A stretch of DNA of 28,280 bases from an uncultured virus (IMG/VR IMGVR_UViG_3300034096_001156) (IMGVR_UViG_3300034096_001156), one strand, 5' to 3'. Positions 2,646 to 15,408 are shown, counted from the stretch's first letter. Notes: generated by a model from the letters alone, not told the origin. A program made the numbers and translations.

Positions 2646-3350
2646 TTACCGTTTTTTATCGTTTCTCATGAGCATTCGACCGCCTCGCCATCCCCGTGCT
2701 TTTTCTCGTTCGGTTTCGAGTAGGTTGAATTTAGCTATATCGCGCTCTTTTTCAGCGTGTAATTCTTCGATCACTAGCCGCTTATAGTCAAGCATCGAGT
2801 TTTTACTGCTAAAGTCAGCGATCATAGTCTTTTGAGTTTTGATCAACTCCTCTAGTATTTGCTTCTCTTCGCTTAGTTTGACGATTTGGCTCTCAAGTTG
2901 CCTTACCTCTTTAATTGCCTCGCTCTTGACGCGAAAACCAGCTAATGTGTGAAGGAATAATTGGACTCCTAGCTTAAGCACTTGAGAGGCTAACTCAGGA
3001 TTATCCTTTGGCAACCACTTACAGATTAGGTCTTCTGGGATTAGATAAACCCCTTGCAACCCGCCCTCTGTTTGAATTTGAGCCTGTTTTAGCAATCCTA
3101 ATCCTAACCCCATTGTGTTACCCCCTTGTAACTTGCTCCCTGTTTAAATTTGAGGGCGATTTGGAGATTCAGAAGTTACCCCCTTGCTATCTTCTTTAGA
3201 TAGCCGGGTTAACCGCATAGTGATAGCGTTGGAGCTTTTCCCAGACATACGAGCATATCCTTTGATTGAGGCAAAGCTTTCACCGGTCTGAGTGTCGATA
3301 ATTAGCTCGATGCCGTCGTGATCAAAACGTTGTAAAATTAGATCAGCCAT
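2646..3350 (-). pseudogene. Bro-N/antirepressor-like DNA-binding protein with coiled-coil tail, split by an in-frame TAA at 3144-3146
   Basis: ORFs 3144-3350 and 2646-3113 share a frame and together align with the intact paralogue 16028-16552 (QRFDHDGIELIIDTQTGESFASI; AQIxTxGGLQGV). The stop looks like CAA>TAA. Confidence 0.75.
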
Positions 3351-3415: not shown

Positions 3416-3591
3416 CTACATTAAATAATCAATTATTCCCCAATATAGAATTTTCTATATTAGGGAATCTGGACACAAAAAAACGAGAATCGGGAAACCT
3501 ATTAACAGTAGCAACAAACTAATAAAACGTATATATATCAATACTTTTCACTGTTAATATTGCTAACAATCTGTTAGCAGTGTATTAACTA

Positions 3592-3621: not shown

Positions 3622-3903
3622 TTAATTAAATTTTTTGTACTCTTGTAGTATTAGGTCGGTTGCCTCCTCAAATTGGTTTCCTTTTGATAGCAGTTCAAGG
3701 ACTTTAGCCAGAACTTGTCTGACTCGTTCTTTACCTATTCCTAATTCTGCTGTAGTTGATGCCACTCTAAAGCGATAGTTCCGATGCCGGGAAGTAACAG
3801 GCACTGGGTCAAGATTATTGTTTTTTGCCCACACCAGATAGATGTAGGCTTGTCTAGGTGTTATTACTTTTGTTTTTCTAATTTTAATTTTTGAAAACAT
3901 CAA
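3622..3903 (-). CDS. Small HTH protein, sigma70 region-4-like
   Basis: TTAELGIGKERVRQVLAKVL matches the region-4 HTH pattern; abuts the upstream gene. Confidence 0.6.
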   Translation of the reverse strand: MMFSKIKIRKTKVITPRQAYIYLVWAKNNNLDPVPVTSRHRNYRFRVASTTAELGIGKERVRQVLAKVLELLSKGNQFEEATDLILQEYKKFN

Positions 3904-4791: not shown

Positions 4792-5367
4792 TTATAGATT
4801 ACTAAAGTCAATATTGTTTCTATTTTCGATCCACCATTTAGCAGAAATAGGGATTTTGATTTCTTTTTTCCATGCACTTACAATCTCTTGTAAGTGTTTT
4901 AAAGCTATATCTTTTGCCCATTTTACTTGTTTTTCACTTCCTTGAAACTCGGTATTTTCTACCCAGTTCATTGCATCTTCTAAGTCACTTTCGGAAGGAA
5001 TACTAAAAGTATAGTATCCGCTTTCAGTTTTTTCAATTTCATCTGGAAGCTTATCTATTGTTTCTGCATCTAGTTTTTGCTCGATTTGTAATTCTCGCCA
5101 AAAATTAGCAATAATCCAATCAGCCATTTTTTTAAAATCCATTTGTTCACGGCATGAATGCCAGTAATCAATATCGTTGTTTTTTTGCCACCAATAGTAA
5201 AAAGCATTCCAGACTTCTTGCCGCGTTTCTTCGGCAAGAAGAAGATTAATTCGGGTAAGTACCTTTCCTCGATAAGAATCAAGGGAAGTGATAGATCGGT
5301 GATTAAAATTCTTTGAGCGATCAAAGAATATTTCGGAATTTACGGGATTACTAGAAGGGAAAAACAT
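4792..5367 (-). CDS. Hypothetical phage protein with GSEKQVKWA motif
   Basis: 191-aa ORF with GAGG RBS and conserved leader GTAAGCAAAACACA; the GSEKQxxWA motif recurs in phage proteins. Confidence 0.75.
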   Translation of the reverse strand: MFFPSSNPVNSEIFFDRSKNFNHRSITSLDSYRGKVLTRINLLLAEETRQEVWNAFYYWWQKNNDIDYWHSCREQMDFKKMADWIIANFWRELQIEQKLDAETIDKLPDEIEKTESGYYTFSIPSESDLEDAMNWVENTEFQGSEKQVKWAKDIALKHLQEIVSAWKKEIKIPISAKWWIENRNNIDFSNL

Positions 5368-5393
5368 TGTTCTGTCCTCTTGTGTTTTGCTTA

Positions 5394-5460
5394 CATTTCT
5401 AATGTAGATTAATCCTCTTGATAAGTGTTGGCGAAGTGTGCCAGTTTATCAAGTGTCACT
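5394..5460 (-). promoter_or_regulatory. Promoter with upstream GTGNCA-N10-TGTCAC palindrome, copy 1
   Basis: -10 TACATT (5401-5406), no good -35, palindrome at 5438-5459. Confidence 0.6.
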
Positions 5461-5487
5461 GGAATAACTAAGAATCTATTTAAAGTA

Positions 5488-5675
5488 ATAAGCACTAGAC
5501 CAAGTGCGTGCGTCAGCCGACTACTATTTCAAATCGGTTACTGGAATTACACCAGCAAGCTTAGAACGACTCATTAACCAGTCTCACCAGCCGACTACTA
5601 TTTCAAGTCGGTTACTGATCTGCCCAGTAGCTTATGGAGGCTCTAATTAATGGATGCACTCGGTTTAGTGCTTAT
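5488..5675 (-). ncRNA. Candidate structured ncRNA: 22-bp closing stem with two tandem two-hairpin domains
   Basis: Inverted repeats at 5488-5509 and 5654-5675. 30-nt direct repeats at 5514-5543 and 5588-5617 (29/30 identical). -10 TATATT lies 6 nt before 5675. G-U pairs in the internal hairpins favour the minus strand. Confidence 0.7.
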
Positions 5676-5740
5676 ATTTTAAATATATCATGATAATTTT
5701 CAGATAGTTGGCAAAGCGTGACACTTTATAAACTGTCACT
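5676..5740 (-). promoter_or_regulatory. Promoter with upstream GTGACA-N10-TGTCAC palindrome, copy 2 (candidate ncRNA promoter)
   Basis: -10 TATATT (5682-5687), palindrome at 5718-5739; 5707-5740 is similar to 5427-5460. Confidence 0.6.
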
Positions 5741-5759
5741 GTGGATACTTTTGTACTGA

Positions 5760-6809
5760 TTATTCTGTAAACCACTGTAAATAAATCTGATGCGCTATCT
5801 GTGCAGTCATTACAGGAGGAACTGACATACCAATTAAATACTTTGGATCGATATTTTTAAAGTTGTAATCGAGTGGATAGCTACCAATTAGGCAAGTTGC
5901 TTTATTTGATATATAATTATTTAAGTTACTGTGTATTAGTTTATTTTTGTTTGCTATTACTGTTAAAGGCGTTTGATTTTCTAAGCAAACAAAAGTAAAT
6001 CCAATACCGCCGATTTTGCCATTTAAACTTTTTTTATGTGTTTGTAACGCACCTGTTGATGTTATAGGGTTTTTTAAAAGTTTTTTTATATAATTACATT
6101 TAATTGCTTCTCCAATTTCATTTGTTCCAAATTCACCAAACAAAATTGGCTCTTCATTAAAATTTAACTCTAGATTTTTAAAGTTTAAATCATTCCTTTG
6201 ACAAATAAAGAACACTCGCTCACGTTTTTGAGGCACTCCCATGCTTGCGGCATTCAAAAGAAATAACTGTACTTTATATCCTGCTTTTTCAAATTCATCT
6301 TTTATTCGCTTTACATACGCTTTGGCATTACCTTGAATAATTCCTTTAACATTTTCAGCGATAACGACCTTTGGCTGTAGTTTTTTTGCTAATCGTATGT
6401 AATCAAAGAAAAGGTCATCAAGTCGCTGTTTAGCCTGACCTTCCCTAAATACTTTTTCTTTCCCCCAGTCTTTTTCTCTATTTCCTGCCATGCTAAATGA
6501 AGAGCAGGGAGGTGAGCCGTCTAAAATATCTAGGTTGTAAAGTTCATCAGGAAGAGTTGCACGATCAGCAAAATCTCTTATATCTTCAATAAATAAATAT
6601 TTAGGATTGTGGTTAGCTTTATATATATTAGCTACTTGCGGGTCTATTTCAACACCTCCTAAATGGTCAAAACCTGCTAACTTGTAACCCATAGTCGAAC
6701 CACCGCCACAGATAAAAGTACCAAATACTTTTAACCCATGTTTTTCAATTCCAGGTGCTGGGTATCCATCTGACAAATTCCACTTATATGCAAATTTATG
6801 TTTAGTCAT
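5760..6809 (-). CDS. DNA (cytosine-5) methyltransferase, no cognate endonuclease seen
   Basis: Motif I variant TFICGGG, catalytic GSPPCSSFS, ENV, PQKRERVFF, C-terminal IGMSVPP. Confidence 0.93.
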   Translation of the reverse strand: MTKHKFAYKWNLSDGYPAPGIEKHGLKVFGTFICGGGSTMGYKLAGFDHLGGVEIDPQVANIYKANHNPKYLFIEDIRDFADRATLPDELYNLDILDGSPPCSSFSMAGNREKDWGKEKVFREGQAKQRLDDLFFDYIRLAKKLQPKVVIAENVKGIIQGNAKAYVKRIKDEFEKAGYKVQLFLLNAASMGVPQKRERVFFICQRNDLNFKNLELNFNEEPILFGEFGTNEIGEAIKCNYIKKLLKNPITSTGALQTHKKSLNGKIGGIGFTFVCLENQTPLTVIANKNKLIHSNLNNYISNKATCLIGSYPLDYNFKNIDPKYLIGMSVPPVMTAQIAHQIYLQWFTE

Positions 6810-15335: not shown

Positions 15336-15408
15336 GCGGGGTGAGTGAAATGGTTTACACATAGGCCTCATAAGCCTAAAACACTAGGTTCGACTCCTAG
15401 ACCCCACA
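15336..15408 (+). tRNA. tRNA with CAT anticodon (elongator Met or Ile2)
   Basis: Acceptor GCGGGGT/ACCCCAC, D arm GTG/CAC, anticodon arm TAGGC-CTCATAA-GCCTA, T arm CTAGG-TTCGACT-CCTAG. No encoded CCA. Confidence 0.85.

Follow-up and report, generated by a model that had tools for sequence, protein, structure and literature searches.

The minus strand of an uncultured virus sequence (IMG/VR IMGVR_UViG_3300034096_001156) carries, between positions 5675 and 5488, a short repetitive stretch near the terminase genes, and the question that it raises is whether this stretch is a gene, a site recognised at the DNA level or a piece of mobile DNA and, if it is a gene, what its product could do. The 28,280-nt sequence analysed, referred to here as the window, is part of a ~85-kb phage that includes a large terminase, a ribonucleotide reductase and one tRNA-Met, with a G+C content of 37%. 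The tRNA-Met (CAT) gene is located at 15336-15408 on the plus strand (55.6 bits). DNA of the window is present in lake-water metagenome runs. No close cultured relative was found, the best terminase matches having an identity of 44% or less; named phage records did not match the element at blastn sensitivity, and the nearest related record (G001) is a 17-kb fragment that does not include the element's region. The element lies 2.6 kb from the terminase genes, within a variable region of early type and beside a C5 DNA methylase. A first-pass annotation had described it as a closed 188-nt RNA composed of two tandem two-hairpin units and had proposed that the identical loops of these units act as a sponge, a decoy or an aptamer.

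Fold and anatomy of the element

Folding of the 188 nt from 5675 to 5488 of the minus strand gave a minimum free energy of -65.8 kcal/mol, as compared to -46.9 +/- 4.2 kcal/mol in 200 shuffles (z -4.55), none of which folded as well. The consensus structure generated by RNAalifold from 13 distinct sequences consists of 67 pairs, which define a terminal stem, named P0, and two domains (Table 1). As had been annotated, the closing arms 5675-5654 and 5509-5488 pair at 22 positions, including 19 Watson-Crick pairs, one G-U and two A-C; the consensus uses 19 pairs of this stem, which can be considered to be ~20 bp long. Each closing arm can also fold alone as GCACT-N6-AGTGC. The first bases of the 5′ arm, AUAAGCA, are similar to UAAGCA, with which the mRNA leaders found behind the same promoter module begin. 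The outer half of P0 is poorly conserved, being disrupted in the relatives L020 and L025 and weakened in L021.

The presence of two repeat units was confirmed: they have in common a 30-nt core with 97% identity and are located 74 nt apart. Each unit has its own closing helix, P1 (5652-5643/5581-5572) and P2 (5570-5565/5514-5508), and therefore both units are three-way junctions. In the RNAalifold structure P1 is a 10-bp helix plus a short extension and P2 has 6 bp, and in each domain hairpin B is placed one base after hairpin A. Hairpin A keeps its stem and has a different loop in each unit. Hairpin B, CCGAYU-UGAAAUAGU-AGUCGG, is found in exactly two copies (5611-5591 and 5537-5517) as compared to 0.00 expected in shuffles, and the sole difference between them is a C/U substitution that gives C-G in one copy and U-G in the other. 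Domain 1 is the unit that is duplicated, as a 90-nt duplication, in variants with three units.

All three frames of the minus strand reach stop codons within the first 11 codons, and a 50-aa ORF on the plus strand (5425-5577) is interrupted in relatives. Therefore, the stretch is not coding.

Table 1. Coordinates of the features of the RNA cassette and its surroundings. Positions are those of the window unless a locus is named.
Feature	Position	Strand	Description and basis
Promoter/operator module, copy 1	5707..5741	minus	Palindrome GTGACA-N10-TGTCAC (5718-5739) then CTTTGCCAAC; upstream of the RNA
Extended -10 element TGATATATT	5682..5690	minus	Sequence; conserved in 19/19 distinct family sequences
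5′ arm of closing stem P0	5656..5675	minus	Fold, alignment; X15 metatranscriptome contig begins at 5666
Domain 1, three-way junction	5572..5652	minus	P1 + hairpin A1 (5629-5613) + hairpin B1 (5611-5591, loop UGAAAUAGU)
Domain 2, three-way junction	5508..5570	minus	P2 + hairpin A2 (5558-5538) + hairpin B2 (5537-5517, loop as in B1)
3′ arm of P0	5488..5507	minus	Alone, a 5-bp hairpin then UUAUUACUUU, weakly terminator-like
Conserved cassette tail	5456..5487	minus	Ends in GUUAUUCCAGUGA, the 5′ half of the relatives' terminator hairpin
Promoter/operator module, copy 2	5427..5461	minus	Heads the next gene, a 191-aa ORF (5367-4792)
CRISPR-like cassette	L311:6960-7060	minus	Hairpin + AUUGAAAC, conserved 34-nt 'spacer', second repeat-like hairpin

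Compensatory changes and transcribed strand

Compensatory changes in homologues, on which the first-pass annotation had made the structure depend, were found: four pairs have changed on both sides, in an alignment whose low overall diversity (97% mean column identity) limits the statistical power of covariation. In 500 shuffles the number of such pairs was 0.5 +/- 0.7 and never reached four, and controls in which the partners were slid by 1-3 columns had 0-1. Three of the four pairs are located in hairpin B2 of a single lineage, L021, in which CCGAUU...AGUCGG is replaced by CUAUCU...AGAUAG; four of the six pairs of this hairpin are altered (three on both sides and one from U-G to C-G) and the 9-nt loop is unchanged. 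The fourth pair is a G-C to U-G change in the outer part of P0 of L016. Changes on one side are mostly swaps between G-U, A-U and G-C, three of which (G-U/A-U) are found in P1. When the structure predicted for the 13 distinct sequences is considered as a whole, 98.5% of the 871 pair cells hold standard pairs. Three changes speak against the fold, as on the minus strand they put A opposite C (L012 in P0, L021 in A1 and L007 in A2).

The C/U polymorphism of hairpin B, present in B1 in 5/13 sequences and in B2 in 2/13, gives C-G or U-G if the minus strand is read and A-C if the plus strand is read; therefore it points to an RNA produced from the minus strand. The loop of hairpin B is UGAAAUAGU in 11 of the 12 distinct unit sequences and UGGAAUAGU in the remaining one, and the loops of hairpin A vary. 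The RNA showed identities of 94.7% and 98.4% where those of the TerL DNA were 82.4% and 86.6%, a difference that may be due to selection or to recent exchange of the cassette.

Promoter, cassette end and metatranscriptome contigs

The window includes two copies of a promoter/operator module (four strand-hits of the pattern at two sites, as compared to 0.03 expected) with the layout GTGACA-N10-TGTCAC, CTTYGCCAAC, 19-20 nt, TATATT, 6-7 nt, UAAGCA. In relatives (L306, L332, L337 and others) it also stands ahead of ordinary protein genes, and the 35-nt 'direct repeats' that flank the element are copies of this module. The TATATT box at 5687-5682 ends 6 nt before A5675, as had been noted, and the TG ahead of it makes it an extended -10 element. 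The geometry of -10 box and start at the RNA promoter is common to the mRNA promoters driven by the module.

The other end of the molecule, which had been placed at 5488, is a putative one. The conserved cassette continues for ~30 nt past this position, and most relatives end it with a separate terminator hairpin of 13 bp followed by UGCUUU; in the L016/L021 lineage the hairpin has 15 bp and precedes UUUU. The window retains no more than the 5′ half of such a hairpin (5456-5470), fused to module copy 2 through a shared CCAGTGA, and the RNA gene therefore has no separate terminator there. The only terminator-like feature after the RNA in the window is the 3′ arm of P0 itself.

Two further observations concern terminator-like hairpins. 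One of 15 bp with a weak T-tail is found in the window at 3435-3468 (minus), in a 271-nt gap between the ORFs 3622-3903 and 3144-3350. In addition, an 81-aa HTH-like ORF is located ~60-300 nt after the RNA in the loci L339, L303, L322 and L324, following a terminator-like hairpin and with no module ahead of it; this ORF might be dependent on read-through from the RNA promoter.

Assembled contigs, rather than reads, of four metatranscriptome runs were used as RNA-library data, and the element is covered by contigs of three of them, which belong to three studies; the contigs of the fourth, X20, left the RNA uncovered. An 820-nt contig of X15 starts at 5666, near the predicted start, and continues through the RNA into downstream sequence, as a leader might be expected to do. 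Short contigs of X16 cover 5571-5660 at a word depth of 28-67 as compared to 0-4 over the flanking genes, which is not a measure of abundance, as contigs cannot rank genes and DNA may be present in RNA libraries. The depth peak on the RNA could also arise because the RNA is more conserved than its flanks, material from diverged strains then matching only the RNA. Contigs of X18 that bear what we take to be the adapter put read 1 on the plus strand at 5521-5652 and also inside a minus-strand gene, and are a weak hint of a minus-strand RNA.

Distribution, empty site and number of units

A scan for exact hairpin B identified 25 IMG/VR contigs, all from one clade of ~85-kb lake phages. When the loop pattern was relaxed, IMG/VR yielded 36 stretches, namely the 25 contigs already known and 11 that lack the stem. 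The relaxed pattern gave at least 120 rows in contigs representing one genome per species; among the matches listed, none pairs at all six stem positions and six rows pair at five of the six, none of these with the surrounding unit, as expected of chance matches. A tandem-loop pattern in metagenome contigs gave at least 119 rows, and the seven true members among those listed are all near-identical to known forms, so that these matches provide no more distant homologue. The 54 locus rows that contain the whole element represent 19 distinct sequences, 16 with two units and three with three units.

The covariance model R1 matched 18 of 80 terminase-linked loci, all of them with a TerL identity of 85% or higher, and had no match at loci with TerL identities of 63% or lower. 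It found one locus in each of the four near-complete RNA-positive genomes, a recovery that serves as positive control for the negative searches, and none in five related whole records, three of which have TerL identities of 85-86% and are 86-100% complete and two of which have TerL identities of 61-63%. A precise empty site was identified in L332 (around 9080) and L342 (around 8343) by comparison with L306:7165-7446. In the empty form the same upstream flank is followed by one module that leads straight into the gene ATGAATAACC..., which in L306 is preceded by the arrangement module-RNA-module. Judging from these sequences, recombination between the flanking modules probably accounts for gain and loss of the cassette. 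The possibility that the element is a MITE or another small mobile repeat, which had been raised together with the original description, was ruled out by the presence of a single locus in each of the four near-complete genomes, and the 35-nt repeats are promoter modules that also stand before protein genes.

The description of two tandem units holds for the window and for most sequences, but the number of units is not fixed and can be two or three. The three-unit form is found in 4 of the 25 IMG/VR contigs (L004, L008, L010 and L013), in which a 90-nt copy of domain 1 has been inserted; its fold keeps P0 and has a z of -4.85. The loose ends of X16 contigs, at window positions 5571 and 5660, correspond to a three-unit variant with a junction 2 nt longer than that of the IMG/VR type. 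Since there are two junction types, the number of units must have changed by at least two different junction events.

The prediction of a phage-borne structured RNA that is encoded on the minus strand, has its own promoter and displays identical loops was supported in all these respects, and the phage gene at 5675-5488 (minus), which is optional and present in a single copy, encodes a structured non-coding RNA.

Known RNA families

None of 4227 Rfam families matched the element, even at E<=10, in agreement with the initial impression that it belonged to no recognised family. Rfam 15 over the whole window had as its only match the tRNA at 15336-15408, and a search of 5300-5900 at E<=10 gave two matches at chance level, HOTAIR_1 (14.7 bits) and STnc150 (11.9 bits). 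The hairpin-B sequence was absent from the literature searched. The RNA is a new family; stand-alone structured small RNAs of phages are, as a kind, already known.

Several specific identities were considered and rejected. Retron msr-msd RNAs have an adjacent reverse transcriptase gene; RVT_1 was found in none of the four RNA-positive genomes (control, 3 of 14 known genomes), and the neighbours of the element are the methylase and the 191-aa ORF. Y RNAs and YrlA have a partner Rsr (TROVE) gene and a tRNA-like domain. TROVE was found in 0/4 RNA-positive genomes (control, 2 of 14 known genomes), there was no Rfam match, and the only Y RNA feature present in the element is the terminal stem. ToxI-like RNAs consist of near-identical tandem repeats of ~34-37 nt, followed by a terminator and the gene of an endoribonuclease toxin. 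An antitoxin RNA of a type III toxin-antitoxin system was discarded as the units measure 74-90 nt, only the 30-nt core is conserved and the downstream ORFs vary; the 191-aa ORF, the downstream ORF that was scanned, has one Pfam match, which is below the curated cut-off and is not to a toxin family. An essential packaging RNA was ruled out by the optional nature of the cassette in phages with near-identical terminase. With respect to interactions within the locus, the 8-mer common to hairpin A2 and the terminator is not conserved, and an anti-terminator pairing of the two was therefore rejected, as was loop-loop kissing of hairpins A and B, the A loops being variable.

A CRISPR-like cassette in relatives and the host

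In relatives, a small CRISPR-repeat-like cassette with the same promoter/operator module is located beside the RNA. Its exact motif is present in 27 of 380 locus rows and absent from the window, and, with no window match to the repeat-like motif at three or fewer mismatches, repeat mimicry of the RNA anti-CRISPR (Racr) kind was rejected for the 188-nt RNA within the limits of this motif and of the 47 cyanobacterial genomes considered below. Among the Cyanobacteriota, the only phylum sampled, 62 of 401 genomes have a 37-nt CRISPR repeat, in most cases as arrays, and the 18-nt motif of the cassette equals the 3′ end of this repeat except for one mismatch. The seven IMG/VR matches of the 'spacer' all correspond to the cassette itself, which in three of them is preceded by another upstream sequence, and no protospacer is found among them. 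A likeness between hairpin B and the 'spacer' is limited to a 7-mer and is at chance level. The cassette may represent a phage crRNA or a solitary repeat of the Racr type, and its similarity to the cyanobacterial repeat suggests a cyanobacterial host and a variable region that is partly devoted to small RNA cassettes.

The 188-nt RNA itself has no likeness to the cyanobacterial 37-nt CRISPR repeat. A host counterpart was sought in 47 array-bearing cyanobacterial genomes, in which the hairpin B pattern gave chance matches, fewer than the reversed control, and R1 gave none; the true host may be outside these 47. Two near-matches to hairpin B with 2-3 mismatches that recur in many cyanobacterial genomes end in ...GATATAATAGTCG and ...GGAATAGTAGTAG, and are probably conserved genes unrelated to the RNA.

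Proposed function and alternative explanations

The candidate role that we favor, with a probability of about 0.4, is that of a trans-acting multivalent decoy or sponge RNA whose identical loops would titrate one partner. According to this model the RNA would be released, or would at least accumulate, as a stable molecule, and its identical hairpin-B loops would titrate a single partner in the course of infection by binding several copies of it. As partner, an RNA-binding protein or nuclease of the host or the phage is proposed, for example a component of host defence. Extra units would raise the binding capacity, and recombination between the flanking promoter modules would be the means by which phages gain or lose the cassette. 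Such a decoy would plausibly act in counter-defence or in host takeover. A more specific proposal, rather unlikely in this detailed form, is an anti-defence strategy of a new kind, in which the UGAAAUAGU hairpins would capture an RNA-guided or RNA-cleaving immune protein of the host, such as, in a bloom-forming cyanobacterium, a Cas accessory nuclease or a toxin with endoribonuclease activity. The number of units would then expand under selection, in a way comparable to the repeats of pseudo-antitoxins, and the RNA would form an 'RNA cassette island' together with the CRISPR-like cassette.

The main rival to the decoy model is a cis-acting RNA for processive antitermination similar to HK022 put (or nut), in which each unit would fold on the nascent transcript and bind the transcribing RNA polymerase, put acting on the β′ zinc-binding domain of the enzyme, and permit it to pass the next terminator and later ones into co-oriented early genes; we consider it unlikely. 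put RNAs are ~70-nt elements with two stem-loops that follow closely after early promoters and act by suppressing terminators (PMC9378689). The element has units every 74 nt, each with two hairpins one base apart, right after a promoter, and in most relatives the units are followed by a terminator hairpin and then by genes on the same strand. Six of the 13 loci examined have no operator/promoter module ahead of the next ORF, and the X15 contig that extends from 5666 through the element into downstream sequence also agrees with read-through. However, the cassette is absent from close relatives that keep the same downstream gene behind the same module, and consequently expression of that gene does not need the element. 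Moreover, in several relatives, as in the window, the RNA is succeeded by a complete promoter module, and a terminal stem that pairs both ends is not a feature described for put.

A base-pairing regulatory sRNA was considered as a second alternative, in which the invariant loop would be a seed shown two or three times that kisses ACUAUUUCA-like sites in transcripts of the host or the phage. The loop of the element, invariant, single-stranded and repeated, would suit such a regulator, as would its organisation as a stand-alone gene that has a promoter and is completed by a terminator in relatives. The complement of the loop motif is nevertheless found nowhere else in the window and only singly in seven related loci of 17-22 kb, and the covariation of the B stem around a fixed loop fits a protein-recognition surface at least equally, which makes the regulator decidedly unlikely.

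It is improbable that the RNA is a tRNA-like or Y-RNA-like scaffold, whose Y-shaped domains would mimic the tRNA elbow, with UGAAA as the T-loop, and recruit or distract a tRNA- or RNA-processing enzyme. UGAAA and its variant UGGAA both have the U (position 1) and the A (position 5) that T-loops keep; in addition, the two ends of the RNA form a terminal stem and both domains have the shape of three-way junctions. Yet the loop has 9 nt instead of 7, and the one tRNA called by ARAGORN is the true tRNA-Met, located elsewhere in the window. Moreover, Rfam families of tRNAs or Y RNAs were not matched even at E<=10, and a TROVE/Rsr gene is missing from all four near-complete RNA-positive genomes.

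In many relatives a promoter is followed by the two similar junction domains, a terminator hairpin and an ORF, which is the classical layout of a riboswitch and suggests a tandem-aptamer riboswitch or attenuator acting on the downstream gene. We consider this model quite improbable. What follows the RNA differs from locus to locus (ORFs of 191, 155 and 125 aa, HTH-like ORFs of 81 aa, or the CRISPR-like cassette), and some relatives have the same gene without the element ahead of it. In addition, the next gene of the window is served by a promoter of its own, no terminator being present there, and no riboswitch family was matched. A riboswitch with a coherent regulon was rejected as well, as the differing downstream genes are often behind a promoter and a terminator is found only in some lineages.

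Finally, a DNA-level site (a palindromic site for protein binding, packaging or replication), which the distance of 2.6 kb to the terminase genes and the palindromic B hairpins with their fixed spacer would fit, is very improbable: in L021 both half-sites changed in B2 only, with B1 unchanged, which argues against a change in the specificity of a dimer, the C/U polymorphism that preserves G-U is strand-specific, and the element stands behind a promoter module of its own, is missing in relatives whose terminase is 85-86% identical and is covered by RNA-library contigs.

Comparison with known systems

Few phage-encoded structured RNAs have known roles and, to our knowledge, the RNA-based counter-defences are few, consisting of Racrs and pseudo-antitoxins. 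The element described here is compact, natural, optional and variable in copy number, has some covariation support, and presents an obvious functional surface, the invariant loop. It is carried by abundant lake phages that probably infect cyanobacteria, and can be considered a tractable candidate for a new phage-host RNA-protein interaction or for a second family of RNA-only antiterminators. By means of the promoter/operator module that they have in common, small cassettes can probably enter and leave the phage genome.

Bacterial YrlA, which also occurs in phages, has a long stem formed by its 5′ and 3′ ends and structured internal domains, and the element has both of these characteristics. 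It differs from YrlA in having no Rfam match, no Rsr/TROVE gene in 4/4 genomes and no canonical T or D arm. CsrB and RsmZ are abundant multi-hairpin RNAs that act as protein sponges by means of several copies of one short loop motif. The element likewise shows one short loop motif on several hairpins, an arrangement that implies titration of a multimeric or abundant binder; unlike CsrB and RsmZ, its loop has no GGA, there are only two or three copies, it is encoded by a phage, and no Rfam match to these families was found.

The closest parallel in layout for the antitermination alternative is putL/putR of HK022, which are ~70-nt units with two stem-loops, directly after a phage promoter and before terminators and co-oriented genes (PMC9378689), as the units of the element are. 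The position before terminators applies to the relatives examined, the window itself being without a terminator. In contrast to putL/putR, the units of the element are in tandem inside a terminal stem, are optional and are often followed by a promoter; layout is what is compared here.

With regard to the decoy model, phage PhiTE reportedly uses pseudo-ToxI repeats as an RNA decoy. Racrs are described as stand-alone small RNA decoys encoded by phages (PMC10651486). The units of the element are junction domains of 74-90 nt as compared to the 28-37-nt repeats of Racrs and pseudo-ToxI, and, unlike Racrs, the element shows no similarity to the cyanobacterial CRISPR repeat or to anything in the 47 cyanobacterial genomes. 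Like both systems, it is a small non-coding RNA gene with its own promoter in an accessory region of a phage, and is made of repeated units whose number varies between strains. The parallel with Racrs extends to the surroundings of the element, which in relatives adjoins a CRISPR-repeat-like RNA cassette.
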